Shown one piece after another: positions 26,571-62,346 of a DNA stretch of 64,000 nt. How positions within the stretch are numbered: position 1 is the first letter of the stretch; each line of letters opens with the position of its first letter. The position numbers and the translations under genes were made by a program. The DNA comes from Bacteroidota bacterium (GTDB lineage: Bacteria > Bacteroidota > Bacteroidia > AKYH767-A > 2013-40CM-41-45). Where the stretch lies: NCBI GenBank assembly GCA_026391975.1, contig JAPLDB010000110.1, positions 3,535 through 67,534 on the forward strand. The letters run 5' to 3'. The notes below the pieces were generated by a model. It was not told the origin of the DNA and searched no databases. It saw nothing but the letters and a program-made list of their open reading frames with translations.

Positions 26571-26578
26571 TATCTTTG
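26571..26578 (+). promoter_or_regulatory. -7 box candidate TATCTTTG upstream of the 26606 start
   Basis: TAnnTTTG match about 28 bp before ATG 26606. Confidence 0.3.
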
Positions 26579-26605
26579 CATGCAATCGTATTAATCAAAC
26601 ATCAA

Positions 26606-35414: not shown

Positions 35415-35431
35415 TTCTAAAACAAAAAATT

Positions 35432-36394: not shown

Positions 36395-36396
36395 TT

Positions 36397-36981: not shown

Positions 36982-36995
36982 AGGAGATAAAAAAA

Positions 36996-38036: not shown

Positions 38037-38123
38037 AAGTCACAAGTTAAAAGGCAAAAGTCATAAGTCATAAGTCATAAGTCATAAGTCAAAAGTTAAA
38101 AGTTATAAGTAATAAGTTAAAAG
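38027..38123. repeat. Heptamer microsatellite (AGTTAGA / AGTCATA x4 / AGTTAAA) starting inside the last codons of the oxidoreductase gene and filling the gap to the next gene
   Basis: caaaagttagaagtcacaagttaaaaggcaaaagtcataagtcataagtcataagtcataagtcaaaagttaaaagttataagtaataagttaaaag. The gene's TAG stop is part of the first unit. Confidence 0.8.
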
Positions 38124-38166
38124 CCTGCCCGAATCACGAAGTGAGGCGGGTTAAAAGATTAGGAAT

Positions 38167-44913: not shown

Positions 44914-46082
44914 TTAGCTTTTCTGCCCTTCCATTGGTAATCTCCCGTCATCGATGCCAGGCCGACTATTGAAATATAAACAGGATATATTATTTGTGCC
45001 GGCAAAAATAAAAATAAGAGCGAGGTTTTCTTAAAGAAAGAAGATACCCCAGACAATAAAATAAATTCAGGTATCATCTTAATGATAAGCGGAATCAGAA
45101 AAAATAAAATATTTCCGGTATAGCACATCAAAATTCCCGACAATAACAATCCTGCATGAAGGAGGTATGCAATTACAGCAATGAAAATGGTAAAAGCACT
45201 CATTTGAACGGGAATTTTGGAAGCCCACCTTTTTCTCTGATTCAGGAGCGCCTGAAGCGAGTGCTGTGCTCTTGTTGTTACCATTGCTTCAGTAGATTTC
45301 ACGAAATGAATTGCTTCCTTTCCACGTGAAGCGGATGCTCCTTCTTTATTCATTCCTGCTATTTTTTGCATGAGCTGTGTATCATCACCTGAAGAAATAT
45401 TTTTTGCGGAACTGTATCCTCCAGCCTCAATAAATGCTGCTTTGGTAAAAGCGAGGTTGGCACCATTGCAAAGAAAAGGCTTTTTATTTTTAATGGCTGC
45501 AGCACCAATGGCAATCAACCCAAGAAATTCAAGGGATTGTATTTTCTCAAACCAGCTTTTTTCGTTACTAAAAATAACCGGAGCACTCATCATTTCCGGT
45601 TTGAATTGCCGGTAGTATTGCGTCAATGTGGCGAGCCATTCAGGGCCCCGGCGACAGTCTGCATCAGTAGTAATAATAAGTTCGCCTGATGAAATGCTTA
45701 TTGCTTCAGTGATCGCATGTTTCTTAAATAAATTCGTTTTCTCCCTTTCATGCATTTTCAATAATCGAATGCGGAGGGATGGATTCTCCCGGATAAATCT
45801 TTCAACAATGTCGGCAGAATAGTCCTCAGAATGGTCGTCAGCAACGATCAGTTCAAATAAATCCCGGGGATAATCCTGATGTAAAAAATCAGAAAGGCAT
45901 GCGGAAATATTTTCAGCCTCATTTCTGGCCGGAATAATTACCGCCACAAAAATCTTTGGTAGATCGTGTGAAGGTGTTGCCCGGAATCTTGCTGACCTCA
46001 ACCATCCAAAGATGCACCAGGATATGAAAGCAGCATAAGAAATGGACAGAAATAATGTAAAAAGAAAAAGTATGTTTTCCAT
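44910..46082 (-). CDS. Family-2 glycosyltransferase (processive or membrane GT2 type)
   Basis: DxD context (VADDHSEDYS), GT-A fold and C-terminal TM helices. The stop overlaps the downstream gene start by 4 bp. Confidence 0.7.
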   Translation of the reverse strand: MENILFLFTLFLSISYAAFISWCIFGWLRSARFRATPSHDLPKIFVAVIIPARNEAENISACLSDFLHQDYPRDLFELIVADDHSEDYSADIVERFIRENPSLRIRLLKMHEREKTNLFKKHAITEAISISSGELIITTDADCRRGPEWLATLTQYYRQFKPEMMSAPVIFSNEKSWFEKIQSLEFLGLIAIGAAAIKNKKPFLCNGANLAFTKAAFIEAGGYSSAKNISSGDDTQLMQKIAGMNKEGASASRGKEAIHFVKSTEAMVTTRAQHSLQALLNQRKRWASKIPVQMSAFTIFIAVIAYLLHAGLLLSGILMCYTGNILFFLIPLIIKMIPEFILLSGVSSFFKKTSLLFLFLPAQIIYPVYISIVGLASMTGDYQWKGRKAK

Positions 46083-46084
46083 TT

Positions 46085-47122
46085 TTATGGCTTATCACTT
46101 CGGAAACGGAACTGAAAAATAAATACGATCCCCAAAAGCGCCGGCGTAACAAGGTTGATAAGCCACAATGAAACTGATGCATTCAGGATTGCCAGCGAAT
46201 CCGGCGTTACCCTTGAAAGGAAATACGTTGCAATGGCGCCGCGAACACCAATTTCAGTGAGTGCAAAAGTCGGAACAAGTGTCATTACGAAAAATATCAT
46301 GTTGATCAGCAATATGAGGGTCTTGGCCGGCGCTTCAATCCCGAAAATTTTCAACAGAAGAAAAAACTGTAAGCTGAATACCATATAACGCATAAATGCC
46401 AGACCCAGCAATACCATCAACTCCGATTTTTTATATTCAGATAGCACCTCAAGATATTTACTTAGCTTCTTAAGTTTTTCTATTTTTAGTATTGACCTGT
46501 CGAGCAATGGAAGTTCCAGAAACAAAAACAGAATGGCCGCTGAAAACACAATCATCAGAATGCCTGTTACCCAGAGAATATATGCATGTAGTCCGCTAAA
46601 CTTTATCAAAAATGCCACAAGGCAGAGGGAGCCAATAATGATGGTAACAATTAGCTGACTCAGGTTTTCGAGGATGGTAACCAGCGTGCCTTTGATCCTG
46701 TTCGCTGAACGAAGGTGAAAAATGCGTCCGGCATACTCCCCGATCCTGTTGGGTGTAAAAAAACTGACCGTCAGTCCTGAGAATACGGCCGCCAGCGCCC
46801 GCAGAAATGGTATCTCTTCCAGTCTTCGCATCATCATCTTCCACTTCAACGCTTCAAGAGACCAGTTCACAAGCATAAGCGAAACCACCAAAAGTATCAT
46901 TGAGCGGCTCCCTTGATTTAGAAAAAGTTCCCTGTACACGGACAGAATTTCAGAAAAATTTTCCTTGCTGATCACCTGCCTGTAGATAAATATAAATGCA
47001 GCAGCAGCTATCAATAACTTGATGCTGCCAAACCAGAAACGGTTGCTCTTATTTGCTTTACTTTGCTCCACAGGGAAGAATGAACAAGGATAATACAAAG
47101 TTTTTCTCGATCTGTATCGCAA
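46085..47122 (-). CDS. Flippase-like/LPG_synthase_TM (UPF0104) family polytopic membrane protein
   Basis: 345 aa, about 8 TM segments. A commonly conserved partner of GT2 enzymes. Confidence 0.5.
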   Translation of the reverse strand: MRYRSRKTLYYPCSFFPVEQSKANKSNRFWFGSIKLLIAAAAFIFIYRQVISKENFSEILSVYRELFLNQGSRSMILLVVSLMLVNWSLEALKWKMMMRRLEEIPFLRALAAVFSGLTVSFFTPNRIGEYAGRIFHLRSANRIKGTLVTILENLSQLIVTIIIGSLCLVAFLIKFSGLHAYILWVTGILMIVFSAAILFLFLELPLLDRSILKIEKLKKLSKYLEVLSEYKKSELMVLLGLAFMRYMVFSLQFFLLLKIFGIEAPAKTLILLINMIFFVMTLVPTFALTEIGVRGAIATYFLSRVTPDSLAILNASVSLWLINLVTPALLGIVFIFQFRFRSDKP

Positions 47123-47158
47123 GACACGATTTTAAACACATAATCAATTCATAAAAAA

Positions 47159-47797
47159 GTGAAAACCCGTGCGGACAAAATAATTCTTGGAATTGATCCC
47201 GGCACAACCATTATGGGCTATGGCCTGATTTCAGTGGCGGGAAGCAAAATGGACGCGGTAGACCTCGGCGTTTTACAGCTCGGCAAGCTGAATGACCATG
47301 CCCTGAAACTGAAAACGATTTTCGAATTCACCCTTTCGCTTATCGATAAATACCATCCCGATGACCTCGCCATCGAAGCACCTTTCTTTGGGAAGAATGT
47401 ACAGAGTATGTTGAAATTAGGAAGGGCTCAGGGGGTTGCAATGGCCGCCGGACTGTTCCGCTCCATTCCGATCTTTGAATATTCGCCTAAAAAGATCAAA
47501 CAATCGATCACAGGAAATGGCAATGCCTCCAAAGAGCAGGTGGCAGCCATGCTTCAAACGCTTCTGACACTAAAGGAACTCCCCCAAAAAATGGACGCTA
47601 CAGATGGTCTTGCAGCGGCAGTTTGTCATTTTTTTCAGCAGAATACATCAGGTGGAAGTAAAAAGAAATTGTCAGGAGGATGGAAATCTTTTCTCTCAGA
47701 AAATCCTGAACGTCAGCTTACTTTGAAGGGCTTGAAAATACTGCAAAGTGATGTATCGTCAAGGTGTCCCTGTTGTATTTTAGCAAAGTTCCATTAG
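47159..47797 (+). CDS. ruvC: Crossover junction endodeoxyribonuclease RuvC. The last ~28 codons are read into an inserted repeat element, giving a non-canonical C-terminus.
   Basis: [16 protein letters not shown].. RNase-H-fold catalytic start, 212 aa. Canonical RuvC C-terminal codons (..GGWKSFLTENPERLLKR*) are found displaced at 48444-48500. Confidence 0.8.
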
Positions 47798-48443
47798 TGT
47801 CCCAAGCTTAAAAACACGAGCTCCAGAGGAGCGACCTGTTTGTAGAATGTGGAGATCTTTCAGTTTTTTCAGCTCCATAGGAGCGGCCTGTAATTTAACA
47901 TCTCGGATTTGAAAAATAATCAACGGCTCATGTTGATTATTTTAAGGACAAATAAATACCAGCAATTTCACTCTCATATTTGGTGCGCGATATAAAGACC
48001 GGGTCTTCCAAATTTATCAATGACATTCATTGGTTAAAAGGGAAATTTAACTTTCAGAATGGATTTGGAGTATTTTCTTATTCAAGAAACCAGATTGATT
48101 CTGTTGTAAGATAAATACTGAATCAGGAAGAACATCATAAAAATCAAATATTCCGGGAGGAATATCATAGTCTCCTTGTGAAATTTGGAATTGAATACGA
48201 TGAAAAATATCTCTTTACCTGTATTGAATAAACAGGCCGCTCCTACGGAGCTCAAACTAATCGAATGGATATTTTCTACAAACAGGCCGCTCCCACGGAG
48301 CTTGAAAAAATTCAATGGGTGTTTTCTAAAATATCGCTTACGACCTCAAATGATTAATAATTGAGCCGGAATTTTTAATTGGGAAATTTTTTAATTGGTT
48401 TGACTATGATACCATATGACCAGCAGGTTTCCCATTGTCGAAA
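47713..48443. mobile_element. About 0.73-kb non-coding palindromic (MITE-like) insertion, flanked by an imperfect 40-bp direct duplication of ruvC 3' sequence
   Basis: Each arm has two tandem ~50-bp units. The left units (47818-47845, 47870-47892) are inverse-complementary to the right units (48231-48253, 48276-48303). There is an internal 11-bp perfect hairpin (aaataatcaac..gttgattattt) at 47916-47944. The flank duplicates are 47674-47713 and 48445-48484 (3 mismatches in 40). Confidence 0.45.
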
Positions 48444-48489
48444 ACAGGAGGATGGAAATCTTTTCTGACAGAAAATCCGGAACGGCTTC

Positions 48490-48888
48490 TTAAAAGGTAA
48501 TATTTTTACGGATAGCCTCAGCTGTAGCTTCCATGTCTTCTTTGGAAAAGGAAAGTTTGGGCATTGCAAAGTTCATGTCACTGACCTTGTTCATAGGAAT
48601 GAGGTGAATATGTGCATGTGGTACTTCAAGCCCGATAACTGCTACGCCTATTCTTTTGCATGGCACTCCTGCTTTTACTGCGATGGAAATCTTTTTTGCA
48701 AACTGCCAGAGATCTGCATGCAGTTCATCTTCAATATCAAAAATATAATCCTTTTCAAGTTTAGGAACTACCAGCGTATGTCCTTTGGCAAGCGGACTGA
48801 CATCGAGAAAAGCAAAGCAGGTTGCGCTCTCTGCGATTTTATAGCAGGGAATTTCTCCTGAAATTATTTTTGAGAAGATCGTTGACAT
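48490..48888 (-). CDS. HIT-family (histidine triad) nucleotide hydrolase
   Basis: HxHxHxx motif HAHIHLIP and ..LDVSPLAKGHTLVVPK.. Confidence 0.8.
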   Translation of the reverse strand: MSTIFSKIISGEIPCYKIAESATCFAFLDVSPLAKGHTLVVPKLEKDYIFDIEDELHADLWQFAKKISIAVKAGVPCKRIGVAVIGLEVPHAHIHLIPMNKVSDMNFAMPKLSFSKEDMEATAEAIRKNITF

Positions 48889-48923
48889 TGTCGGCTAAAA
48901 ATACAAAAGGAACTATTATCCTT

Positions 48924-49394
48924 TTATCTGCTGATAGAAACAATTTCAAATTTCATTTTTCCGGACGGGACTTCAATCACCGCTACTTCACCGACTTTTT
49001 TTCCAAGCAATCCTTTGCCTATTGGTGAGCTAACAGAAATTTTTCCGGATTTAAGGTCAGCCTCGTTTTCGGCAACAAGGGTATAGGTCATCGACTGACC
49101 ATTGCCTTTGTTCTTGATCTTCACTTTTGAAAGGACCATCGCTTTGGAATTATCCATCTTGCTTTCATCCACGAGGCGGGCATTTGCAATAACCGTCTCT
49201 AATTTGGAAATACGGAGCTCAAGCATGCCCTGGGCATCTTTAGCCGCGTCGTATTCCGCATTCTCTGATAAGTCGCCTTTATCGCGGGCCTCGGCAATTT
49301 GTGCGGATATGCGTGGGCGCTCTACGTTCCTTAATTGAGCTAATTCTTCCTGAAGCCTCTTCAGGCCATCTTCAGTGTAATAGGAAACTGACAT
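48924..49394 (-). CDS. greA: Transcription elongation factor GreA
   Basis: N-terminal coiled coil with the acidic tip DLSENAEYDAAKDAQ, and a C-terminal FKBP-like domain. Confidence 0.9.
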   Translation of the reverse strand: MSVSYYTEDGLKRLQEELAQLRNVERPRISAQIAEARDKGDLSENAEYDAAKDAQGMLELRISKLETVIANARLVDESKMDNSKAMVLSKVKIKNKGNGQSMTYTLVAENEADLKSGKISVSSPIGKGLLGKKVGEVAVIEVPSGKMKFEIVSISR

Positions 49395-49472
49395 AGTATA
49401 ATAGGTATTAAAAGCAAAACAATCCCGATTGACATCGGGATTGTTTTGCTGCGCAAAGATAAAGAGGATTTT

Positions 49473-50528
49473 TTACAATATAAAATACGCCCCGAAAGTA
49501 TGGGATCCGTCAAACGGATTGGTGGCGCGGTATGAGTAGTCAATACCAAACTTAGTATTGCTTTTCCCCAGTGGAACCTGAATTGTGAGTCCTGCACAAG
49601 GGCCTGTAAATACAGTTGTACGAAGCTTGTCATCGGCAATATTCTCTTCGTAGACATATCCTCCGCGAAGCATGAAATACTCTTTGAATGAATACTCAAG
49701 GCCGCCCTGATATGTATCCTGGGTGAATGAGTTGGAAGTAAATCCAAGTCCGAAACTCAGGCGATGATCCTTGGCAAGCTTGGCATCATAAGAAAGTCCG
49801 ATATTCAGCAATGAAGGGATCTCAAAACCATTGGCACGTTGTTCAACTGTATATTCGTAAGAAGGAGATACGTTTGTTACAAGTACACGTGAAGAAAGTC
49901 CGTCACCGCCAAACTTCATCGGCGTGCCAACATTTTTCAATGCGATACCAACTTTGAAATTATCGCGGTCTGCATTGAATCCGGTTACATATTGTATTCC
50001 TGCATCAAGGGCAACTCCTGTTGCATTTACATTGGAAATACTTTCGTTTACAACTTTCAGATTAAGTCCTCCATAAATGCTGTTAGAAAATGCTTTCGCA
50101 TAGCATAAAGAGATGTTCAGAAACTGCGGGCTGAAATCACCAAGACCACCTTCGGGCTGGTCAACGGTTGTTATCGGAATATCACCGAAGCTGAATGACA
50201 TCAGCGAAAGTCCCATTACACTTCCTTCTCCAACTTTAAAGGTTCCGCCAAGAGAATTGATGCTCATGCCGCTTCCTTTCAACCAGATAGAATGTGCAAA
50301 TGCGATTTCAACTTTTTTGGTTAGTGCAATACCGGCTACATTGCCAAAGATGGCTTCAACGCCGCTTACACTTCCTGTATTTACGCCTCCCCAGCCTGAC
50401 GACTTAGCCCAGGGGTTCAGCAAAAGTTCTGTTGCTCCTGCCTGTCCGGCACGATCCGGATTTCCTCCTTTACTCATGAAAGGAACTGAGAGGGCAATGA
50501 TCAGTAATGTCTTAAGTGTCTTTCTCAT
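49473..50528 (-). CDS. FadL-like outer-membrane beta-barrel of the PorP/SprF or PorV/PorQ type. Context favours a PorP/SprF-like cognate partner of the upstream type-B-CTD protein.
   Basis: Signal peptide. N-terminal ..NPDRAGQAGATELLLNPWAKSSG.. carries the Arg...NPA signature shared by FadL/PorV/SprF-type barrels. Glycine/aromatic-rich beta-strand periodicity. 351 aa, starting 22 bp after the upstream gene. Confidence 0.5.
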   Translation of the reverse strand: MRKTLKTLLIIALSVPFMSKGGNPDRAGQAGATELLLNPWAKSSGWGGVNTGSVSGVEAIFGNVAGIALTKKVEIAFAHSIWLKGSGMSINSLGGTFKVGEGSVMGLSLMSFSFGDIPITTVDQPEGGLGDFSPQFLNISLCYAKAFSNSIYGGLNLKVVNESISNVNATGVALDAGIQYVTGFNADRDNFKVGIALKNVGTPMKFGGDGLSSRVLVTNVSPSYEYTVEQRANGFEIPSLLNIGLSYDAKLAKDHRLSFGLGFTSNSFTQDTYQGGLEYSFKEYFMLRGGYVYEENIADDKLRTTVFTGPCAGLTIQVPLGKSNTKFGIDYSYRATNPFDGSHTFGAYFIL

Positions 50529-50549
50529 AATTTCTTTTTTGTTGTTCGA

Positions 50550-53500
50550 TTAGAAAGTATCAAGGTCAATCGGACGAAGCACGCCGAAGAATTTAATGGT
50601 CTTCTCTCCAACGCCAGGTGCCTCCACATGGATAATATACAAGCCACTGGCAACCGGAATTCCTGCTGAGTTTTTCAGATCCCAATCTATCGAACTTTCA
50701 AGGTTCAGGTCGGCCTTCGGATCATAGATTCCGCCTGCGGTGTTATCGCCTGCAACATCACGATTGTACTTTCTGATGAGTGTTCCGCTTGGTGTAAATA
50801 TGCTGACGGTACACTTTGGAGGCAGGTTCACAATTTTCACGCGGTAATCCAGCTGGTTCTTCTCATATTGAGAATATGCATAGTATGGATTTGGAACTAC
50901 ATTAATGTTGTCAAGCGCGGACTTCGCTTTTTCACCGTTCCTTGTTTTAGGAACCAGGTCATTTGTTGAAAACTGATAGAGCGGGAAACTGTCATTTAAA
51001 GCAACTGCATTCGGATTGAATTTAGCGTATGGCTTAGCAACACGAATACGAATCGTTACGTCATTCTTATAGCCGCTGCCTGTTCCATAAAAATCAGGAA
51101 GCTGTTCACCTGAAGCTAATAACGGATATCCTACCCACATGCAATTGCCCCAGGTTCTGTTCCATGTAGATGTTTTGGTTATTGAATCCCCCAATGCCTT
51201 TGTCCCATCATAGGCTCCAACATAGGCGGTATGCGAAAATACGTAAATCACATGGCGTCCGCCAAGGATGTATTTTCCATAGGCATCAGTATCGGTAAGA
51301 AGTGAGTTTGGATTCCATTTCATATCTTCTCCATTACCATTAGAATAACCATGTGTCGGCCCATAATAGCTGTTTTCGCCGAAAGCAATATTCAGTCGTT
51401 CACCTGTTTCTACATTCACAGCATAACCCGGGAACCAGCTATAACCTGTGTCACCCGCAACTGTATTTCCATTTTTGTCAATGGAGAAACTCCGCCTCAG
51501 TTTCATGCGCTTGGCATCGGAAGTAGTAACACTGACTGTCAGCGTATCAGAATATGATTGTTCAATTACGGGGCAATAACTCCACTTGGACTTGTCTGTA
51601 GTAATCACCACATCGATGCTGGCCTGATTAAAAAATCTGTTCTGACCGAAAGCATTGCTATTGTTAGCCGGTCCGTTATTGAGATAATCATAAGAAGTGA
51701 AACGGTAAGGCGCCCATGAACCCCCGATAATTTTCTCATAAACCTGCTGGCCGTCAAATTCACCACTATTGAATTTATAGTCGGTAGAAGTTTCCTTACC
51801 GCTGCGAATCCAGTTTAAGCCGGGATCTCCGTCAAAATCATAAACTCCTCCCCACCACCTTTGTGTAGGACTTTCATAGGTAATTGATGAGTTGATGAAT
51901 CCTGCGCCACCTGTTGCATCATCTCCTGGCTGGTAAGCCTTCTGAGGTGTTTGTGCCATGTTGATCGAGAATCCATAATTCGGGAACAACTGATCATAAG
52001 GCGATAAAATACTCTTCAAAGAAGTATCAGTGGTTCCGGCTGCAGGATTGCTCAATACCCAGAGTGTATCAACTGCTATATAATGTGGAATTGTATCAGT
52101 ATAGGTGCCTAAGTACTTGTCATGGTTGATCGTGTCAGAAGCATCTTCAAAAGTGTCAACTTTTGCAATTTCCTTTAATTGAAATACACCGCCTTCAACA
52201 GAAATAGGATCATAAATTCTGATATCCACAGGACCTTTCGCCCTTTCATAGGTTGGATGACTGATCATGTAAGGTGCAGCAAATAAATTATTGTAGTCTG
52301 CATCCCTCTTCAAATCAAGTGCGAGGCGGTCTCCTCCAAGCTGATGTCCGTTTCCTGTTCCTTCAAGGCGGGTAATTTCAGGTCCGTCACCATAAGACGC
52401 GCTCAAAACAGTACCATAGATTTCAGGATCCGGTGAATGCGGAATGGCTGTGTAGATCTTGATGTTTTTTCGGCCTGACAGGTAAGGCTTATTTCTGCCT
52501 GTTGGAACATAAGGATCTGATGCTGATTCCCCCGGATTATATGCATAGGCTACAGCAAGGAAATAATACGTTTTGTGGTTCACCATTGTTGGATCACCTG
52601 AAGCGAACAAATCGTTTGTAACCCTGAAAGTATGTTTCAAGCCATTGTCACTGCCATTCACTTCTTCAACAGGTGTCCATCCCTGTGTGGTCTGATCAAA
52701 TGTATTATTAACGATTTGAGAAATACCATCCTTGACGTCACACTGAACTACCAGTCGTGCCTTATCAGGATTGTGAACATCTGAAACAGTAACAAACGGA
52801 TCTACGGTTTGAAAGATCTGGTAACCCTGGAAATTATAGTAACTGGCAATTGTGGTATTCGGATCAACTTCGCTGTATTTCTCCTTGTAGTTATTAGAGA
52901 GTTTTGAGTTGTCAATAGATAAAATAATCCCCTTGTCCAATTCCCTGATCGTCATTTCAGGTGCATCAGGTCCGTCAACAACTTTGAAGCAATTATTAAA
53001 CAGTGCCTGTGCATAGTCGTCTGCCTGACGCACAAGACGAACTGATGCAAGTGGTCCGCCATTGGTTGCCCTGGCCCATACCGCACCTGTTGTAATATAA
53101 TTTACAGCTCCCGGCAATAAGGTGAATGGACCTGAAGATTGTAAGAACCTTCTGTCGTCAGGAAGATTCTCAGCAGTAACTTCATCCCAATCAGCTTCCG
53201 GAAGTCCGTTCGTTCCCCAATGATTTGGATCTGAATTCCCCGGGAACATAAAGTCACAAAGGTCATTTGTTCCACCTACTCCGCCCCCATGACCGTCGCC
53301 ACCATAAGTCATCCGGTTTCCATTACGCCAGATACCCTGAAGGTATCCATAATAATCTTCAGCACCATTTGGGTTACCTACGATTGGATCATTATTGTTA
53401 TTGTAATACACAAATTTTGACATGATGATGTTCTCACGCAGTATCGAATCAGAGATTGTGTCGATAGTACCCTGTGCATTTGGTACGAACGTACAATCAA

Positions 53501-54599
53501 TACAACTGTCACGGTCATTATCACGGTTATCATTAATGTCTGCAACAGGACCCTGGAAAAAATCCACACCCACAGCTGGAGGATTGAATCCATAACCTGC
53601 AATACCTTCATCATTGGCATCACCGTTATAGCAATACCCAAATCCGCGCTTCACATCACAACCAACATAGTCATCAAGGTAATTACCCAGATCAGGATCA
53701 ACCCATGCTCCGAAATAGCAACTGTCAATATTTGTAGTTGTATTCCTGTTGATGATCTTGTATTTATAAAAACTCATGTTGTTGATCTCATCGTTTGTTG
53801 CAAAAGCAAATGCCTGTGCCTGGATCTCGAGACCAATAGGATACTGGCTGTCTGTTTCGCGGTGGACATTTCCTACATCATTAAATACCCACCACAATGA
53901 CTGGTCACCCAGCATTCTGTCATCGCAAACGGGAGCGCTTGAATTGAATTCGAAATAAGGGTAATCGCCATCTTCCCAGTTATAGATACCATCCACATTT
54001 CTGTCAAAGAAAGGAGCGAGGAAATGAACGTAACCTGCACCTGCACCATGTTCAGGATCATCGCCATTTCCGGGCCAGTCCTGCATCACCTGTGGTGGCA
54101 GATAGCCGGCAGGATAACCGCCCGCATTTGCATCAAAATTGGCAATTGCCTGCTGAACTTCATCTCTTGTTACCCTGAAGTGCCTGTCGAATTTGGTACA
54201 AACATCAGGCGTAACATCTGTTGTTGTAAGATTCACCGGACCGGGCCAGAAATCATCTCCTGACTGTCGGTATGTTTGTGCTGCTACGCGCAGATTTTGA
54301 GAATTATCATATCCTCCAACCCAGACAGCACCGGCAAACAATGAATGTTTTCCTGAACCCTTGGGTACTTCATAGGTTGCTGTCCCAACAAGATCCCACC
54401 ACATATCACCATTGATAAAGATCCTGGTCCTGATGTTGTTGATGTCAAGATCCGTTTGTGCAGTTGACTTATTGCAGGAAGCAAGCACATGGTCACCGCC
54501 AATAGGTCCGTTGCGATGCCCTGAGTTTACATTTTCCTTTGCAGATAATAAACTGACTGAAAGGACTGTGAAAAGTGATGTTAAGATAATTTTTCTCAT
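50550..54599 (-). CDS. Large (~1350 aa) secreted cell-surface protein ending in a type-B-like T9SS C-terminal domain. The ORF extends to 54632; MRKIILTSLF at 54599 is the preferred start.
   Basis: Signal peptide MRKIILTSLFTVLSVSLLSA. Asn/Gly/Trp/Tyr-rich beta-rich body. The C-terminal ~110 aa (VVPNPYYAY..PKCTVSIFTPSGTLIRKY..WDLKNSAGIPVASGLYIIHVEA..KTIKFFGVLRP) match the pattern of the gliding-motility-associated (type B) CTD (..CTVSIFNRWG..WDG.n.G..lp.GtYfY....G.v.L.R). Confidence 0.55.
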   Translation of the reverse strand: MRKIILTSLFTVLSVSLLSAKENVNSGHRNGPIGGDHVLASCNKSTAQTDLDINNIRTRIFINGDMWWDLVGTATYEVPKGSGKHSLFAGAVWVGGYDNSQNLRVAAQTYRQSGDDFWPGPVNLTTTDVTPDVCTKFDRHFRVTRDEVQQAIANFDANAGGYPAGYLPPQVMQDWPGNGDDPEHGAGAGYVHFLAPFFDRNVDGIYNWEDGDYPYFEFNSSAPVCDDRMLGDQSLWWVFNDVGNVHRETDSQYPIGLEIQAQAFAFATNDEINNMSFYKYKIINRNTTTNIDSCYFGAWVDPDLGNYLDDYVGCDVKRGFGYCYNGDANDEGIAGYGFNPPAVGVDFFQGPVADINDNRDNDRDSCIDCTFVPNAQGTIDTISDSILRENIIMSKFVYYNNNNDPIVGNPNGAEDYYGYLQGIWRNGNRMTYGGDGHGGGVGGTNDLCDFMFPGNSDPNHWGTNGLPEADWDEVTAENLPDDRRFLQSSGPFTLLPGAVNYITTGAVWARATNGGPLASVRLVRQADDYAQALFNNCFKVVDGPDAPEMTIRELDKGIILSIDNSKLSNNYKEKYSEVDPNTTIASYYNFQGYQIFQTVDPFVTVSDVHNPDKARLVVQCDVKDGISQIVNNTFDQTTQGWTPVEEVNGSDNGLKHTFRVTNDLFASGDPTMVNHKTYYFLAVAYAYNPGESASDPYVPTGRNKPYLSGRKNIKIYTAIPHSPDPEIYGTVLSASYGDGPEITRLEGTGNGHQLGGDRLALDLKRDADYNNLFAAPYMISHPTYERAKGPVDIRIYDPISVEGGVFQLKEIAKVDTFEDASDTINHDKYLGTYTDTIPHYIAVDTLWVLSNPAAGTTDTSLKSILSPYDQLFPNYGFSINMAQTPQKAYQPGDDATGGAGFINSSITYESPTQRWWGGVYDFDGDPGLNWIRSGKETSTDYKFNSGEFDGQQVYEKIIGGSWAPYRFTSYDYLNNGPANNSNAFGQNRFFNQASIDVVITTDKSKWSYCPVIEQSYSDTLTVSVTTSDAKRMKLRRSFSIDKNGNTVAGDTGYSWFPGYAVNVETGERLNIAFGENSYYGPTHGYSNGNGEDMKWNPNSLLTDTDAYGKYILGGRHVIYVFSHTAYVGAYDGTKALGDSITKTSTWNRTWGNCMWVGYPLLASGEQLPDFYGTGSGYKNDVTIRIRVAKPYAKFNPNAVALNDSFPLYQFSTNDLVPKTRNGEKAKSALDNINVVPNPYYAYSQYEKNQLDYRVKIVNLPPKCTVSIFTPSGTLIRKYNRDVAGDNTAGGIYDPKADLNLESSIDWDLKNSAGIPVASGLYIIHVEAPGVGEKTIKFFGVLRPIDLDTF

Positions 54600-54640
54600 A
54601 ATGATATGAATAGAATTCTTAGCTGTTGTCAAATATTTAA

Positions 54641-57600
54641 TTAAAAGTCAAGTTGCAATCCAAGACGGATACGCCTTGGCAGACTGTAATTACCCTGGTT
54701 GTTTTCTGCGATTTCATACTGTGTAATATAAGCATCCGTACTCAGCTTGCTGCTAATGTCATTTTGTGCTGCTGCTGACGAAAGGTATCCGTCGTCTGTC
54801 GGACTACCGGTTGCAGAATAAACAGATATTACGTTACGCGCATCGAACACATTCAGCACTTGTAAATACACTCCGAGGAAATAGGCCCTTCTCTTTTCGC
54901 CATTTGCTTTCTTGCCCATCTTCAGCTCAAACTGTTTGTCAATTTTTGCATCAACACGATACTGCCATGGTAAACGAGAACCATTCACTGAACCATCCAG
55001 CTGGAAGCGGCCATTGGCTGCTGTTGTGAAATCTGACTCAGGTGTAATGTTCTTTTTGCGTGTATAAGGTGTACCTGATCCTGAACGGAATGTAAAGTTC
55101 AATCCGGCATTTGCGAAAACCTGTTTGTCAAACCACACAGGACCGTCGTAATCTTTGCCTTTTCCATAATGGTAATCAAAAGAAGCAGTAAGCTGGTGGC
55201 GCTGATCAAAATCCAGTGGCTTAGGCTCTCTCAGATTTGTTTGTCCCTGCTGGGCGATCAGTCGTCCGTTAGAACCGGCATTCGAACCTGTACCTTCAGC
55301 AAACTGTAGCGTATAGCTGGCAGTCATTCTGATGTTACCTGTTCTTCTCAGGTCATAACTTAATGTAAGACCTTTAACTGTACCTATATCTATGTTACCA
55401 TAAGTATAATAGTCGATCGGATAAGCATATTGAACGCTGATCACCTGGATCATATCACGTAACTCCTTATAGAAAGCAGAGAGCGACAACGCTGAACTCC
55501 TTGTCAGTTTTTGCTGGAAGGTAATTTCATAGTCAGTTGTCTTTTCCGGTTTCAGGGAAGGATTGGAATTGGTAAGTGAAGATCCCTGTGCAAGTGCATA
55601 ATATAGATCCGGGCGGAACTGGATCAGGCCTGCAGCTTGCGGACGTTGAGTAAGCACATCATAATGGGCGGAGAAGAATGCCTCGTCGGAAATCGGGAAT
55701 GAGAAAGCGATACGCGGCATAAATGTCGTTTGAGGCTCATAATCTCCGAATGCATCCGGCGTGAGAAGTCCCTTATCCATTAAATCAAAATATTTCTCCT
55801 GAACGAATGGCGCAATGCCGGTTCCACTTTGATTGGCAAGCGTATTTACATCCGTGATGCTGTTACCCTGTGCGTCAAACCATTTGTCACCTTCACGGAA
55901 ACCAATTGGTCCTGAACCGGAAGGATTTTTCACATCGTTCACGTAAACAACTGCATCAGAAGAAATATTGGTTGGCAGGTTGTAATAAGGGAACCTGTTT
56001 TTCAAAGCTTCTGAACCGGCTGTATAAGCAGGGTACAACAAATATTTGTCTTTCAATACAGGCTGGTTTGCATCGAAACGATCCACACGCACACCAATAT
56101 TAAACTGAATGTCATTAAAGATAAACTTATCAGCTATATAACCTGCTACATAGATCGGACGGAAAGCACCCATCGGACGGGTGAAATTGTTTGTCTTGTC
56201 TTTGTTGTTGATGAAGTCCGTGATACTCGGATTTTCCGTGGTTTTATTTCCCAGGTAATCATATCCATAGTATCCGACAAATCCGAAGTTCAGCAATTCA
56301 TCAGTAGTGAACATGTCAAGAGAAAAATCTTCCGGCGTGTAGTTGTCAATGTCTACATAGCGGTGATAATTGATACCGAACTTATCGCGTACGTTTTCAT
56401 AAAAACCATTCGCTGCTTCGTCTGCAAGATTTCGGGTCTGATTATAGAGGAATTGAAAATTAGCAACGGTATCCTGATTGTCAATTGTAATGTAAGGATT
56501 GGCTTCAAAATTGATGAGTCTTGAATTAGCCAGTCCACGCATCAATGACCACAATCCGCTTGGAGAAACGCTGTATCCCCTGTCTTCCCGCTGCTCATAT
56601 TCAAAACCAAGCACAACGTTGTGATTCTTGATATCTGCAGAGCCCGAAGCAACAATTCGGAACTGGTTGTTTTCTGATTTACCATAAAAAGTTCTTGTCC
56701 GGCCCGGTAACGCCCACAAGCCGTATGTATTCAACGTAAGACGGTTATCACCATTGATGATACCATTGTTAGAAACAACCTGACCAAGCGTAAAGTCTCC
56801 CGGATTCAATTCAAAATACTGAGAAGCAAAAGCAGAAGTATAAGGACTTCCGGCATAAGGCTCATAGTCAAGCGGAGCAGTTATTGCAACATCCTGAAAA
56901 ATGGCATCAATGAAGGAAGTGTCATTTCCCTGAATGTACTCATATGAATTAGGCAATCTGAAATCAGCAAGGTGTGTGGTAAATTTTCCTACATAACCAT
57001 AACGGAAAATCTTATCCATGTGCACATCATTTCCGTCTTCGCTTGAATTCTTTGTGTAGTCAGCCTGCAAAGTATAAAAAGCATGTTTCACAACTGATGC
57101 GCTGGTCTTTTGCGCTTCGTCATCACCAAAACGTTGCTGGATCTTTGCAAATACACGGTAAGACTGATCTGTAACCTGATTATTGTAATAAGAATTCATC
57201 AATGAATAAATGTCGATGAAATCATGTCTTTTCTCGTGTTCATACGTTCCACCCAGTGTTATGTAGAAGTTTTTTATCGGCCTGAAATCAAGTTTTCCAT
57301 TGATCACATAATTATGCCTTGCTACATTTTTTCTTTCCTTTTGATGATCAAGGCTATCATAGGTAAGATACTCACCGCGCCTGTCAAAACCTTCACCTGT
57401 CGGAGATTTAACCAGTGGAGAACTCTCCAGCCTTTTCTGAACATCATCTTTCACTACATATTGTCCGATTGCTGAAGGACTCGGACCTTTGTCATACAAC
57501 CAGTCTGCAGAAATAAAATACCCTGCTACTGTGGTCTTCTTACCTACTGAATCATGAGATGAAATAATAGGTCCTGAAAAAGATGCAGACAACCGGTTAT

Positions 57601-58339
57601 TGTCATACGCATCGATGAAATGAGATGACTCTCCTTCCAGTCCGTAATGAAACTGTGGAGAAGGTCCCCTTGTAGTAATTGAAACGATACCACCTGTTGC
57701 ATCCCCATATTGTGCCGGAACACCACCTGTAATCACAGTGATCTGCTCTGCGCCTTTGGCAGTAATATTTGAACCTCCTCTTACTTTAATACCATCAACA
57801 TAATATGCTGTACCATCAGAACGCGAACCACGAACGTTCAACTCCTTGCCATCATCACGTTGAAAAACGCCTGCAGACTGGGAAGCAATTGAATTTACGT
57901 CACGCGTAGGAGCCGCCTGGATTTCTTCAAATGTCATTGTCTTCTGAACAGATGTTTGACCCTTATCCAACAACGGAACCTTGTAATCCACGATCTGGAC
58001 TTCGCCGATGTCAATACCCTTACCCATCTCCATGTTTACAAAAGAGATTTTGTCAACTGTAATCAGTACACCATTCGTTTGTGCCGGACTGTAACCCACG
58101 CAGGTTGCCTTGAGGTCATACTTTCCCGGTCCGAGTGGCTTCAGGGTATAATTTCCATCAAGGTCAGTAACAGTCGCAATGATCTGTTGCCCACCTTGTG
58201 TAGCTGCAACACTTGCAAAAGGAACTCCGTCCTTTCCACCTCTTTCTTTGATCTGCCCGCGGATTTCGCCGGATTGCGCAATTGCATTGGAAAAGATGAA
58301 GCTGAAAAGAAAAAGCGATAGGTAAAAATTACGTCCCAT
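54641..58339 (-). CDS. Giant (1232 aa) TonB-dependent-receptor-like outer-membrane protein with an N-terminal CarboxypepD_reg domain and plug
   Basis: Signal peptide MGRNFYLSLFLFSFIFSNAIAQ. CarboxypepD_reg (..IRGQIKE..GVPFASVAA..TDLDGNYTL..). Plug motif ELNVRGSRSDGTAYYVDGIKV. Long beta-barrel ending ..LQLDF. Followed 9 bp later by the next gene. Confidence 0.65.
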   Translation of the reverse strand: MGRNFYLSLFLFSFIFSNAIAQSGEIRGQIKERGGKDGVPFASVAATQGGQQIIATVTDLDGNYTLKPLGPGKYDLKATCVGYSPAQTNGVLITVDKISFVNMEMGKGIDIGEVQIVDYKVPLLDKGQTSVQKTMTFEEIQAAPTRDVNSIASQSAGVFQRDDGKELNVRGSRSDGTAYYVDGIKVRGGSNITAKGAEQITVITGGVPAQYGDATGGIVSITTRGPSPQFHYGLEGESSHFIDAYDNNRLSASFSGPIISSHDSVGKKTTVAGYFISADWLYDKGPSPSAIGQYVVKDDVQKRLESSPLVKSPTGEGFDRRGEYLTYDSLDHQKERKNVARHNYVINGKLDFRPIKNFYITLGGTYEHEKRHDFIDIYSLMNSYYNNQVTDQSYRVFAKIQQRFGDDEAQKTSASVVKHAFYTLQADYTKNSSEDGNDVHMDKIFRYGYVGKFTTHLADFRLPNSYEYIQGNDTSFIDAIFQDVAITAPLDYEPYAGSPYTSAFASQYFELNPGDFTLGQVVSNNGIINGDNRLTLNTYGLWALPGRTRTFYGKSENNQFRIVASGSADIKNHNVVLGFEYEQREDRGYSVSPSGLWSLMRGLANSRLINFEANPYITIDNQDTVANFQFLYNQTRNLADEAANGFYENVRDKFGINYHRYVDIDNYTPEDFSLDMFTTDELLNFGFVGYYGYDYLGNKTTENPSITDFINNKDKTNNFTRPMGAFRPIYVAGYIADKFIFNDIQFNIGVRVDRFDANQPVLKDKYLLYPAYTAGSEALKNRFPYYNLPTNISSDAVVYVNDVKNPSGSGPIGFREGDKWFDAQGNSITDVNTLANQSGTGIAPFVQEKYFDLMDKGLLTPDAFGDYEPQTTFMPRIAFSFPISDEAFFSAHYDVLTQRPQAAGLIQFRPDLYYALAQGSSLTNSNPSLKPEKTTDYEITFQQKLTRSSALSLSAFYKELRDMIQVISVQYAYPIDYYTYGNIDIGTVKGLTLSYDLRRTGNIRMTASYTLQFAEGTGSNAGSNGRLIAQQGQTNLREPKPLDFDQRHQLTASFDYHYGKGKDYDGPVWFDKQVFANAGLNFTFRSGSGTPYTRKKNITPESDFTTAANGRFQLDGSVNGSRLPWQYRVDAKIDKQFELKMGKKANGEKRRAYFLGVYLQVLNVFDARNVISVYSATGSPTDDGYLSSAAAQNDISSKLSTDAYITQYEIAENNQGNYSLPRRIRLGLQLDF

Positions 58340-58785
58340 AATGTTAGGTTAAATTAAGTTAACTTTTTTTGGAGGCGGTAAAAGTATAAATCCAATAATA
58401 AAAAACAAAAATTGTTTTTTACGTCGCCAAATGCCTGATTCGTAGCACCATTTGGAGTATTCGATTTTACAATCATGCCTTTTTCTAATAATTCGGTTAC
58501 CTAACTTCAACACCAATTCATGAATTTCATGCTGTAAAGATTTCATGATTTATCTGCATTTACAAATCAACTTTGTTGAATTGTATACATCTCTACACAA
58601 TGCAGAACTTTTCATTATCTTCGGTGCTTCAGTAAGGATATTTCATTAGGCTAAGGTGATCAGCGTTCATAAGTTTTTTGTCAGCGTTTCGTCAATTAAG
58701 ATTTGGGGGGTTATCTTGGGAACTTATCAACAATCCGTGCCACTGTAATTAAAAAATTATTTTTGCGCACGATAAAATTGAAACT

Positions 58786-61700
58786 ATGCGTTTAACATCA
58801 CTTGAGATCAAAGGATTTAAAAGTTTTGGCGAAAAGACCGTCATTCATTTTGACAAAGGCGTGACGGCCATTGTGGGCCCGAACGGCAGCGGAAAGAGCA
58901 ATGTGGTAGATGCCATGCGTTGGGTGCTTGGTGAGCAGAAGACCAGAATGCTCCGGAGTGAGAAGATGGAAAATATCATCTTTAACGGTACAAAAACCCG
59001 CAAACAGGCCAGTGTGGCTGAAGTGAGCATTTCATTTGACAACACCAAAAACATACTCCCGACAGAATACACCAGCGTTACCATTACCCGCAGACTATAC
59101 CGCAGTGGCGAAAGCGAATACCTTCTGAACAATGTAACCTGCCGCCTGAAAGACATTACAGATCTTTTCATGGACACAGGTATCGGTTCTGATTCTTATG
59201 CAATCATTGAACTGAAGATGGTGGATGAGATCCTGAATGACAAGAATAATTCAATCAAGCTTTTGTTTGAGGAAGCTGCCGGGATTTCAAAGTACAAAGT
59301 GCGGAAGAAGCAAACGCTGAACAAACTCGAGGAGACAGATGCAGACCTGAGCCGTGTGAATGACCTCTTGTTCGAGATCGAAAAAAACCTGAAGACTTTG
59401 GAGTCGCAGGCAAGGAAAACAGAACGATATTATAAATTAAAAGAACAATACAAGGAACTTAGTACTGAACTCGCATTGTTTACCATTTCTTCGAACAAGA
59501 CCACCTACGAAGAACTTCAGTCGCAGGAAACAAATCAGATCGAGGAACGCATTGCGCTGGAAGCACAGATCGCTGAAACAGAAGCAAGACTTCAGGCTGA
59601 TAAACTGGTGAATCTTGATCTTGAAAAAGAACTGGGTGATGCACAAAAACAACTTAACGAAAAAATTTCCCACATCCGTCAGCAGGAAAACGACAAGAAG
59701 ATCAGCAACGAAAAGCTGAAATACCTGCAGGACAAAGAAGCACAACTCAGCCAGCAATTAAGTGCAGACAAGAACAACCTTGTTCAGACGCAGGATCAGA
59801 TCAGCCTTCTTGAAGAAGAAAAATTTGCAGAAGAAAATCTATTAACACAACTCCAGCAGCAGCTTGAAGATTTACGCGGAGTGCTTGATGCCGCTAAACT
59901 CAATCACGACTCTTTAAAGAGTGAAGTCAACCTTGTTTCTCATGAAGTGAAAGCGATCCAGCTTTCCATGCATGAGTCAGAGAAAAGCTATGCTGTTGCT
60001 CAGGCAAGGAAAGAATCCCTTCACAAAGAGATCGACCGCCTGAAAAATGATACTGAACTCAAATCAACAGAGCACGAACCTCTTGCTGTAAAAACAACTG
60101 AAGCAAAAGCTGAAAAAGAACTGAAAGAAACAGAACTTCAGTCATTGGTTGAAAGCGAAGAACAAATGGCAGAAAGCATCATCTACATGGATGATGAGTT
60201 GAAGCGCCTCACCGATGAATTGATGGCTGAAGGCCGGAAACTTGACGCAAAAGAAAATGAATACAAACTCACTAAGAGCCTTGTAGACAATCTTGAAGGT
60301 TACCCTGAATCTCTGCGATACATCAAGAAGAGTGCATCGAAAGCCTCACAGGCACCTTTGTTCAGTGATGTATTGTCGGCAGGAAATGAATTCAAATCAG
60401 CGCTTGAAATTTACCTCGAGCCTTACATGAATTATTTTGTGATCGAGGATATTGAAGAGGCGAGCAAAGCAGTAAACCTGTTGAGCGAAGCTTCAAAGGG
60501 ACGTGCGAATTTCTTCATCCTGAAAAATTTCGAGGATGAAAACACCACCACTCCCGGACCGATCGCAGGATGTATCCATGCAATGGACATTCTCGAAGTG
60601 GAAGAGAAATACAGACCGTTGTGCAGTTACCTGCTTCGGAATGTTTACATCGTTACTGAAAATCAGGACAACACTCCTTCTTTACAAAATGAAAACAGGT
60701 CATCTGTATTCATTTCCCAAAATGGAAAATATTGCCGCACAAAGCATGCACTGAGCGGTGGATCTGTGGGACTATTTGATGGCAAAAGGATCGGACGCGC
60801 CAAACATATGGAGCAGCTCAGCAAAGAAATTGAAGAGCTTTCTGTTTCTCTTTCTAAAGTAAAAGCCCTCCGCGACAATATGCAGCGTGATCTTTCGGAG
60901 ACAAAGCTTCGCAAAGAGAAAATGGTATCAGGAAAAAACAGACTGCAACAGGAACTGAACAAGATCAACCATGAATTCTCTTCTCTCAGCAGCAAGGCAG
61001 AACATTTATTTGCCGCCATGGAGAATAACAAAACGATTCTCAATGACCTGGAAAGCCAGCTTTCAGCGCTGGAAGGTTCACTCAACCAAAACAGTCTGAG
61101 CCACCAGGAACACCTGGACCAGATGAAGGCAACCTTCAATACCCTGAACGAACGACTTACTTTATTACAGTCTCAGTTCAATGATGCTACACATGAACTC
61201 GACAAACAAAGCAATGAATACAACCAGCATCATATCAAGTGTATTCAGCAACAGAATAAGCTTGCAACTACTGTAAGGGACCTTACTTACAAAGTTACGC
61301 TGCTGGAAACACTGCAGAAAAACATTACATCGAATACTACAGATTACGAAGGTGTACAAGTCCAGATTGCTGAACTGATAAGCACCAGCGAGGATTTTGA
61401 TACACAGTTGATCGCATTGTATGCCGACAAAGAAGCATTTGAGCAGACTGTGAATGTGCTTGAAACAAATTATTTCAAAGCACGCGGCGCCATTGATGAG
61501 CTGGAAACTGCAATTCGTCAGATCCGTCACCGCAAAGAGCAAAGCGACCAGCTTGCACAGGCCGTGAAAGACAAAACCATGGAACTGAAAATGCAACTGA
61601 ACGGTTTGAAAGAACGCCTGAGTGTGGAGTTCGGACTTGACATCAATGAGCTGCTTGATAAAGATCCTTCACCTGACTGGACTGAAGAAACGCTGCGCGA

Positions 61701-62346
61701 AAAAGTGACCAAACAAAAATCGCAGCTTGACAATTACGGTCCGATCAACCCGATGGCTGTTGAAGCGTTCAATGAGATCAAAGAACGCCATACATTTATA
61801 ATTGAACAGAAAGATGACCTTGCACGTGCAAAAGAATCGTTGCTTCAGACTATCAGCGAAATTGAAATGACTGCGAAAGAGAATTTCATGAAAGCATTTG
61901 TTGAGATCCGCACAAACTTCATGAAGGTATTCAGGTCATTGTTTACAGAAGATGATGATTGCGATCTCATCCTCCTCGATCCGTCAAATCCGACTGAAAG
62001 TGATGTGCAGATCATAGCCAAGCCAAAAGGAAAACGACCGCTGAGTATTTCTCAGTTGAGCGGTGGAGAAAAAACGCTGACTGCAATTGCGCTTCTGTTT
62101 GGTATTTACCTGATCAAGCCGGCTCCGTTCTGTATTTTTGATGAGGTAGATGCACCGCTGGATGATACCAACATTGACAAGTTCAATAACATCATCAAGA
62201 AATTTTCCGGTGATTCTCAGTTCATCATCATCACGCACAACAAGCGCACGATGACTTCCACTGATATCATTTATGGTATCACGATGGCAGAACCGGGTGT
62301 AACGCAGGTTGTACCGGTGGATCTGACTGAAGTGGTGGAAAATTAA
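58786..62346 (+). CDS. smc: Chromosome segregation protein SMC
   Basis: N-terminal Walker A GPNGSGKSN, long coiled coils, hinge, C-terminal signature LSGGEKTLTAIALLF and Walker B IFDEVDAPLD. 1186 aa. Confidence 0.9.
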   Translation: MRLTSLEIKGFKSFGEKTVIHFDKGVTAIVGPNGSGKSNVVDAMRWVLGEQKTRMLRSEKMENIIFNGTKTRKQASVAEVSISFDNTKNILPTEYTSVTITRRLYRSGESEYLLNNVTCRLKDITDLFMDTGIGSDSYAIIELKMVDEILNDKNNSIKLLFEEAAGISKYKVRKKQTLNKLEETDADLSRVNDLLFEIEKNLKTLESQARKTERYYKLKEQYKELSTELALFTISSNKTTYEELQSQETNQIEERIALEAQIAETEARLQADKLVNLDLEKELGDAQKQLNEKISHIRQQENDKKISNEKLKYLQDKEAQLSQQLSADKNNLVQTQDQISLLEEEKFAEENLLTQLQQQLEDLRGVLDAAKLNHDSLKSEVNLVSHEVKAIQLSMHESEKSYAVAQARKESLHKEIDRLKNDTELKSTEHEPLAVKTTEAKAEKELKETELQSLVESEEQMAESIIYMDDELKRLTDELMAEGRKLDAKENEYKLTKSLVDNLEGYPESLRYIKKSASKASQAPLFSDVLSAGNEFKSALEIYLEPYMNYFVIEDIEEASKAVNLLSEASKGRANFFILKNFEDENTTTPGPIAGCIHAMDILEVEEKYRPLCSYLLRNVYIVTENQDNTPSLQNENRSSVFISQNGKYCRTKHALSGGSVGLFDGKRIGRAKHMEQLSKEIEELSVSLSKVKALRDNMQRDLSETKLRKEKMVSGKNRLQQELNKINHEFSSLSSKAEHLFAAMENNKTILNDLESQLSALEGSLNQNSLSHQEHLDQMKATFNTLNERLTLLQSQFNDATHELDKQSNEYNQHHIKCIQQQNKLATTVRDLTYKVTLLETLQKNITSNTTDYEGVQVQIAELISTSEDFDTQLIALYADKEAFEQTVNVLETNYFKARGAIDELETAIRQIRHRKEQSDQLAQAVKDKTMELKMQLNGLKERLSVEFGLDINELLDKDPSPDWTEETLREKVTKQKSQLDNYGPINPMAVEAFNEIKERHTFIIEQKDDLARAKESLLQTISEIEMTAKENFMKAFVEIRTNFMKVFRSLFTEDDDCDLILLDPSNPTESDVQIIAKPKGKRPLSISQLSGGEKTLTAIALLFGIYLIKPAPFCIFDEVDAPLDDTNIDKFNNIIKKFSGDSQFIIITHNKRTMTSTDIIYGITMAEPGVTQVVPVDLTEVVEN

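Follow-up and report, generated by a model that had tools for sequence, protein, structure and literature searches.

Three adjacent minus-strand genes in a 64,000-nucleotide stretch of contig JAPLDB010000110.1 (Bacteroidota bacterium, assembly GCA_026391975.1; this whole stretch is called the window below) form, as judged from their sequences and those of their relatives, a tight and conserved operon that joins a TonB-dependent transporter (TBDT), a protein with a cargo-like type IX secretion system (T9SS) C-terminal domain (CTD), and a PorV-like barrel. We call these genes A, B, and C, in 5′ to 3′ order. The operon may plausibly be an analogue of the SusC/SusD pair in which the partner of the transporter is delivered by the T9SS and sits on a barrel anchor. 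Drawing on sequence comparisons and on analogy with characterized systems, we give a probability of about 0.4 to the whole mechanism, in which T9SS-exported B, held on C, cooperates with transporter A. The locus was picked out by an earlier reading of the same DNA, hereafter the original prediction.

The three open reading frames (ORFs) named in the original prediction are present on the minus strand (Table 1), although the spacings of 9 and 22 bp that it gave had to be corrected. In the mechanical ORF list, B begins at a TTG codon (50550-54632, 1360 aa) that lies 11 codons 5′ of a conserved ATG at 54599. Because the alignments of more than 100 homologues begin at this internal methionine (MRKIIL...), we assigned the start of B to the ATG. 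With the start moved, the gap between A and B becomes 41 nt rather than the apparent 8-9 nt; the B-C gap is 21 nt, and 78 nt separate C from the following gene, greA.

The arrangement is widely conserved. A genome scan with B returned at least 596 related stretches, and we analyzed the best 80 loci together with one further metagenome locus. The best 80 all belong to metagenome-assembled genomes (MAGs) of Bacteroidota, labeled Bacteroidales, Flavobacteriales, Lentimicrobium, Parvicellaceae, Sphingobacteriia, or Chitinophaga, and all homologues found bear MAG or metagenome names; the MAGs of the carriers come from freshwater, soil, wastewater, and marine habitats. In 67 of the 81 loci, A, B, and C were contiguous, on one strand, and in the same order; the gaps between them had medians of 48 and 52 nt. 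The synteny of the trio, which the original prediction had proposed to check, is thus conserved and not due to chance. Among the other 14 loci, six were cut by contig ends, seven held orphan B paralogues, and one contained A and B without C. Wherever C followed B and the upstream flank was available, A lay directly 5′ of B. Across loci, how closely A resembles its window counterpart in identity also co-varies with the same measure for B (r = 0.90), a correlation that shared descent alone could explain.

Additional copies of B were seen in several settings. In one genome, a tandem second copy follows C (A-B-C-B′; L025, 2346-11984), and in one MAG the trio coexists with an orphan copy (L029 and L073). 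Orphan copies occur in unrelated contexts (L014, L019, L026, L034, L058, and L073): two of these six are near unrelated TBDTs of ~800 aa, and the rest are beside metabolic or regulatory genes. Directly after the orphan paralogue in L073 is a gene (12139-13896, plus strand) for a 585-aa protein with a canonical Por_Secre_tail domain (PF18962).

Gene A encodes a genuine TBDT. As the original prediction had it, the 1232-aa protein begins with a signal peptide, contains CarboxypepD_reg, plug, and barrel domains, and ends in Phe. All three domains score above the Pfam gathering thresholds: CarboxypepD_reg (PF13620) at residues 26-105; Plug (PF07715), which contains ELNVRGSRSDGTAYYVDGIKV, at residues 133-218 (38.6 bits, cut-off 23.9); and TonB_dep_Rec (PF00593) at residues 595-1106 (50 bits, cut-off 27). 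An AlphaFold 2 model (pLDDT 87.2, pTM 0.83) contains a 22-strand barrel, with ~500 extra residues forming extracellular additions to it. When this model was compared with the Protein Data Bank (PDB) using Foldseek, the matches were the classic 22-strand TBDTs PhuR, PirA, FpvA, FhuA, XusA, and BtuB (E 1e-25 to 1e-20, target-normalised TM-score 0.6-0.79); a PDB search with the sequence of A gave no match. A TonB-box-like strand, GEVQIVDYKVPLLDKG, comes after the N-terminal domain and before the plug; 110 homologues conserve its pattern, [ED]V.[IV].[ED]Y.[VI]PLIDKG, at the position of the SusC-type TonB box. Matches of A to NCBIfam models were weak only, and none of those at E≤0.1 was to a SusC/RagA model.

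Profile comparisons identify C as a PorV/PorQ-family barrel of the FadL superfamily, in a subfamily distinct from PorV, PorQ, PorV2, and PorP/SprF. Residues 31-347 match positions 3-322 of 326 in the PorV/PorQ family model NF033709 with 141.7 bits (cut-off 90). The scores for the equivalog models fall well below their cut-offs: 66.1 versus 250 for PorV (NF033710), 62.6 versus 220 for PorQ (NF033711), and 46.2 versus 325 for PorV2 (NF052325). PorP/SprF (TIGR03519) was not among the NCBIfam matches at E≤0.1. The original prediction had described C as a PorV/PorQ/SprF-type barrel, and its PorV/PorQ part stands while its SprF part does not; the N-terminal signature, given there as Arg...NPA, reads R...NPW. 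A profile built from 25 orthologues of C found Flavobacterium johnsoniae PorV among PDB chains (6h3i_F, 1.1e-14). We also considered a generic FadL/TodX channel, the alternative against which the original prediction wanted C checked, and rejected it: C has no Pfam Toluene_X/FadL match at E≤0.1, and TodX is weak with the family profile (0.02-0.03). BamG, from the Bacteroidota β-barrel assembly machinery (BAM), was likewise dropped as an identity for C, and with it BamH for B, as the C profile does not match BamG among PDB chains.

The end of B carries what appears, from weak but consistent matches, to be a T9SS CTD of a divergent, type-A-like kind, to which the retained CTDs of PorZ and PorU come closest. 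Over the last ~130 residues, B matches the NCBIfam models for PorZ (6.7e-7) and PorU (4.9e-4) through their CTDs, as well as FlgD_ig weakly. Only the CTD part of either model aligns: positions 665-741 of 757 in PorZ (NF052228; 22-28 bits, cut-off 260) and 991-1076 of 1095 in PorU (NF033707; 17.9 bits, cut-off 420). We therefore rejected B as a full-length PorZ, with its two beta-propellers, or a full-length PorU, with its peptidase domain. Across 35 members of the B family, PorZ was matched in 31, PorU in 6, the type-A model in 3 (weakly; best 4.6e-4), and the type-B model in none. A profile of 20 B-family CTDs, searched against the PDB, gave PorZ (5m11 residues 686-757, E 0.0046) and PorU (6za2, E 0.038) as its best matches.

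The C-terminal peptides of B quoted in the original prediction are present in the translation, and the relationship to T9SS CTDs held up under profile hidden Markov models (HMMs), in a PorZ/PorU-like and type-A-related form. The assignment to type B did not: TIGR04131 and PF13585 gave no match in the CTD of B even at E≤10, nor did the type-A models TIGR04183 and PF18962. The CTD of B carries PNP, G.Y..H, and K.FG motifs as well as inserts, and its PNP, G.Y, and K motifs align with the true type-A CTDs of the window. PorZ ends directly past its last strand, whereas B continues for 8 residues, and this tail (RP.DLD.[FY]-COOH) is invariant in all orthologues and paralogues examined. Since the tail is kept in every paralogue, orphans included, it would fit a single cognate anchor. 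The CTDs of PorZ and PorU are retained and bound to PorQ and PorV, respectively, and cognate PorV-like barrels may shield a CTD from cleavage (PMC10202324). As the CTD of B is not type B and C is not a PorP/SprF barrel, the appropriate precedent is the retained-CTD anchoring of PorZ-PorQ and PorU-PorV, not SprB-SprF.

The rest of B belongs to a very large family with no Pfam or NCBIfam model. It is predicted to be Sec-exported and not a lipoprotein, since its signal peptide is of type I and a lipobox is lacking. The original prediction called it rich in Asn, Gly, and Trp; Gly (9.7%) and Asn (8.0%) are indeed abundant, but Trp is not (1.9%), and Asp (8.8%) takes its place. Pfam gave no domain for the window protein, nor for any of 35 relatives, no NCBIfam family model covers it, and neither a single-sequence nor a family-profile search revealed a PDB relative. 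Using residues 36-1235, phmmer recovered 7,380 clusters at 50% identity (E≤1e-3), 2,438 of them at E≤1e-30; NCBI names some homologues T9SS type A or C-terminal target domain proteins. An AlphaFold model of the same residues (pLDDT 87, pTM 0.78) is multidomain and almost entirely beta. Foldseek returned no convincing match for this model, and none to a catalytic-domain fold. Structural superposition placed a galactose-mutarotase-like supersandwich inside it; this fold is typical of carbohydrate-binding domains. The Asp-rich loops of the model look Ca-binding.

Downstream of C, a perfect 17-bp stem (49413-49450) is followed by a T-run. Of 59 orthologous C-greA spacers, 46 contain a strong hairpin with a T-run, and the stem sequences differ among them. 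Although a generic promoter and terminator scan missed it and was otherwise uninformative, this hairpin probably closes the operon as an intrinsic terminator. Since hairpin and T-run are kept after C in most of these loci, A-B-C is a delimited operon. At the other end, the 446-nt region 5′ of A presumably carries the promoter. By eye, we found a candidate of the Bacteroidota type, consisting of TTTG (58409-58406), a 19-nt spacer, and TACTTTTA (58386-58379), which has one mismatch to TAnnTTTG. Sigma-70-type sites were not enriched in this region in the generic scan, and an Rfam search of the region returned no family (rli61 reached 27 bits, gathering score 50).

The C-greA spacer has further features. 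A Bacteroidota-type -7 box, TATCTTTG (49461-49454, minus strand), lies directly past the stop codon of C and before the hairpin; in related loci, the TAnnTTTG box is mostly 3′ of the hairpin and lies 5′ of it in 9 of the 25 spacers that contain both. The window hairpin and its TTTTAA end 13 nt 5′ of the greA ATG, so that they are also within the greA leader. Besides terminating A-B-C, the hairpin could on this placement attenuate greA. The E. coli greA leader, GraL, offers a comparison.

Table 1. Coordinates of the A-B-C operon and adjoining features in the window
Feature	Position	Strand	Basis
Gene A, TonB-dependent transporter, 1232 aa	54641-58339	-	Pfam and AlphaFold 2 model
Gene B, secreted protein (predicted) of an unannotated family, 1349 aa	50550-54599	-	Orthologue alignment (start)
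CTD of B (last ~125 aa), putative divergent type-A-like T9SS CTD	50550-50927	-	PorZ and PorU model matches
Gene C, PorV/PorQ-family barrel (by profile), 351 aa	49473-50528	-	NF033709
Hairpin and T-run, probable intrinsic terminator between C and greA	49407-49450	-	Sequence inspection
Intergenic region 5′ of A, 446 nt, presumed promoter region	58340-58785	-	Inference only
smc, divergent from A	58786-62346	+	
greA, 3′ of C, followed by HIT-family gene	48924-49394	-	

We propose that A-B-C would be expressed as a single operon for a three-part outer-membrane machine. B would be exported by the T9SS by way of its CTD-bearing C terminus, and the CTD would be retained, neither cleaved nor attached to lipopolysaccharide (LPS). 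The retained CTD would dock B non-covalently on C as its dedicated PorV/PorQ-family barrel, much as PorZ is docked on PorQ and PorU on PorV. Displayed on the cell surface beside or over A, the all-beta body of B, with its supersandwich, would capture a ligand, for which a glycan or glycoconjugate is the likeliest candidate, and pass it to A for TonB-powered import. The result would be a functional equivalent of the SusC/SusD pair, except that a T9SS cargo on a barrel anchor would take the place of the surface lipoprotein. That C holds B is, by analogy, quite probable, because the two genes adjoin in ~90% of informative loci and because PorZ-PorQ and PorU-PorV are precedents. Capture and import by A and B are suggested by the invariant coupling of the two genes, by the carbohydrate-domain-like fold, and by an independent occurrence of a row of the same three gene types in an alginate polysaccharide utilization locus (PUL) of Rhodothermus marinus, described below.

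Several observations weigh against this mechanism. The CTD matches of B are weak (22-28 bits; PDB E 0.005), and the CTD of the window protein falls short of the type-A model. Supersandwich domains are not always glycan binders, and the P1 domain of YidC is among the fold matches of B. Orphan B paralogues have no consistent adjacency to TBDTs. Across orders, the neighborhood is a housekeeping one, with smc upstream in some loci and greA, the HIT-family gene, and ruvC downstream, and there is no adjacent sensor. Neither in the window nor in the related loci does a SusD, carbohydrate-active enzyme (CAZyme), or regulator gene adjoin A-B-C. A housekeeping setting that lacks PUL features points to a core envelope function more than to a substrate-specific PUL.

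This setting makes a core role in the envelope or in surface biogenesis a rival, if to our minds an unlikely one. B on C could handle a surface polymer through PorZ-like binding of LPS or glycan, or A could act outward, as the TBDT Oar does. In Bacteroidales, Flavobacteriales, and Chitinophagales-like MAGs alike, the trio travels with greA, the HIT-family gene, and ruvC, no regulator or CAZyme is nearby, the CTD of B most resembles that of PorZ, which delivers A-LPS, and A combines CarboxypepD_reg with a TBDT architecture but has no SusC signature; Oar is a precedent for a secretion-linked TBDT (PMC6434023). However, the likeness to PorZ is confined to the CTD, the body of B having neither propellers nor any other PorZ match; the best structural matches of A are importers; and an expansion of paralogues, as seen for B, is commoner where ligand binding is diverse than in a core machine. 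Another explanation, which we also think improbable, is that B and C make up a self-contained surface adhesin or enzyme module and that A is an independent transporter sharing only their promoter. The pairing of B with C has direct precedents in PorZ-PorQ and SprB-SprF, the many invariant Asp, Glu, His, and Ser residues of B are candidates for an active or metal site, and orphan B copies exist with no adjoining TBDT. Against this, A is immediately 5′ of B wherever C follows and the flank is available, the gaps are tight, the identities of A and B co-vary, TBDT coupling recurs in the R. marinus PUL, and no catalytic-domain fold was matched by B.

Two more conventional readings fare worse. That the locus is an ordinary PUL of the SusC/SusD type or a generic operon for an iron receptor is very unlikely, even though homologues of A bear the JGI label "outer membrane receptor protein involved in Fe transport" and its fold resembles transporters of siderophores, haem, and B12. 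A has no SusC/RagA match, no SusD or lipoprotein partner was found (the downstream gene, B, has no SusD domain), and the neighbors are smc, greA, and the HIT-family gene, with no siderophore or haem genes nearby; in 67 loci A is followed by genes for a T9SS-CTD protein and a PorV-family barrel. The check for an ordinary SusC with an adjacent SusD, raised in the original prediction, thus came out negative. The original prediction itself favored a type-B-CTD cargo secreted with, and anchored by, a PorP/SprF-like barrel, as in gliding-type modules. What speaks for such a module is only the order of cargo gene and small-barrel gene and the unusual length of the CTD. TIGR04131 and PF13585 are absent from B at E≤10, none of 35 relatives has a type-B match, and C matches PorV/PorQ and not TIGR03519; we consider that the HMM results for the CTD of B and for C rule this reading out for practical purposes. 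Our preferred reading remains capture by T9SS-exported B, held on C, and import through A.

The genes around the operon are also conserved. Downstream of C, 62 loci have greA and 58 have the HIT-family gene, often with ruvC, an LPG-synthase-like gene, and a GT2 glycosyltransferase gene. The order in the window (44910-49394; compare loci L001-L083) is greA, the HIT-family gene, ruvC on the opposite strand, and genes for an LPG-synthase-TM-like protein, a GT2 protein, and an ABC-type permease. This order is kept across MAGs with different order labels, an unusually deep synteny for Bacteroidota.

Elsewhere in the window are two of the three type-A cargos mentioned in the original prediction. These two are true T9SS type-A cargos that match TIGR04183 with 38.8 and 42.1 bits (5160-6719, minus strand, and 26576-27964, plus strand), and since they are encoded here, the organism has a T9SS. 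The cargo at 5160-6719 contains an SBBP/beta-propeller-like region. The window also contains surface-polysaccharide genes (11699-13922, minus strand; 34095-39456, plus strand). They include two glycosyltransferases, which weakly match models of PEP-CTERM/XrtA systems and of the teichuronic-acid type, and two nucleotide-sugar dehydrogenases (TuaD-like and TviB-like).

If the proposed mechanism is correct, TonB-dependent uptake and type IX secretion, two hallmarks of the Bacteroidota outer membrane, would be joined in one machine, and PorV-family anchors would gain a new class and retained CTDs a new variant. It would also provide a first functional handle on the large B family. The lineages that carry the operon are known mostly from metagenomes, where SusC/SusD-centered annotation would miss such loci. 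A tentative extension, on which we would not bet at even odds, is that TonB-dependent capture follows a second, T9SS-based design in many environmental Bacteroidota, a lipoprotein-free counterpart of SusC/SusD in which a cargo of the B family is locked onto a dedicated PorV/PorQ paralogue by a retained, PorZ-like CTD with its unique RP.DLD.F tail. Such a design would also account for the uninterpreted rows of TBDT, CTD-protein, and PorV-family genes in Rhodothermus PULs.

Among known systems, the pairs with type-B CTDs, SprB-SprF and PG1035-PorP, share with B-C the order of a cargo gene followed by that of its cognate anchor barrel, and their CTDs are thought to be retained. They differ in both the CTD family and the barrel family, and the corresponding HMM tests were negative for B and C. 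Oar of Myxococcus xanthus is likewise a long TBDT; CarboxypepD_reg forms its N-terminal domain, and it is not known to have a SusD partner. We liken it to A by description only. Oar is not known to be linked to the T9SS or to any barrel of the PorV kind. It is required for secretion of PopC (PMC6434023) and shows that a TBDT can serve protein export. In the BamG-BamH pair of the Bacteroidota BAM, the extracellular loops of a FadL-like 14-strand barrel hold a large surface protein (PMC12578637; PMC12611786), but BamH, unlike B, is a lipoprotein, and among PDB chains the C profile matches PorV and not BamG. The atypical PUL chu_1276-1280 of Cytophaga hutchinsonii was considered as the same system and rejected, since it has no T9SS or PorV element.

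There is also a likeness to SusC/SusD, BtuB-BtuG, and XusA-XusB, in which a large TBDT with a CarboxypepD_reg-type domain is encoded beside a presumed surface partner; XusA is among the fold matches of A. A, however, falls outside SusC/RagA, and B is neither a lipoprotein nor SusD-like, having a putative T9SS CTD and barrel anchor instead; no PUL enzymes or regulators adjoin. For that anchor, the nearest parallels are PorZ-PorQ and PorU-PorV of the Porphyromonas gingivalis attachment complex, in which a 14-strand barrel of the PorV family holds at the surface a T9SS-exported protein whose CTD is kept. The CTD of B is most similar to those of PorZ and PorU, and C belongs to the PorV/PorQ family. 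In its body, B is unrelated to PorZ and PorU, C scores below the PorV and PorQ cut-offs, the genes share an operon with a TBDT, and the CTD has its extra 8-residue tail.

The original prediction held that this layout belongs to no described module. The operon does differ from ordinary Sus and gliding modules and from known T9SS modules, but the identical row has been drawn, uncommented, in the alginate PUL of R. marinus. Apart from that figure legend, we found no description of PorV-like or PorQ-like paralogues beside TBDTs in the literature that we covered, which did not extend to subscription journals. The R. marinus row consists of a TonB-dependent receptor, a T9SS type A sorting-domain protein (hypA), and a PorV/PorQ family protein (hypB), drawn without interpretation and listed as hypothetical (PMC9530828). 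It differs from A-B-C in lying inside a true PUL, with PL6, PL17, and PL39 lyases, and in its much smaller TBDT (935 aa) and cargo (727 aa). By annotation and gene order, however, it has the same three parts in the same sequence as A-B-C, and hypB, at 352 aa, is close in length to the 351-aa C.

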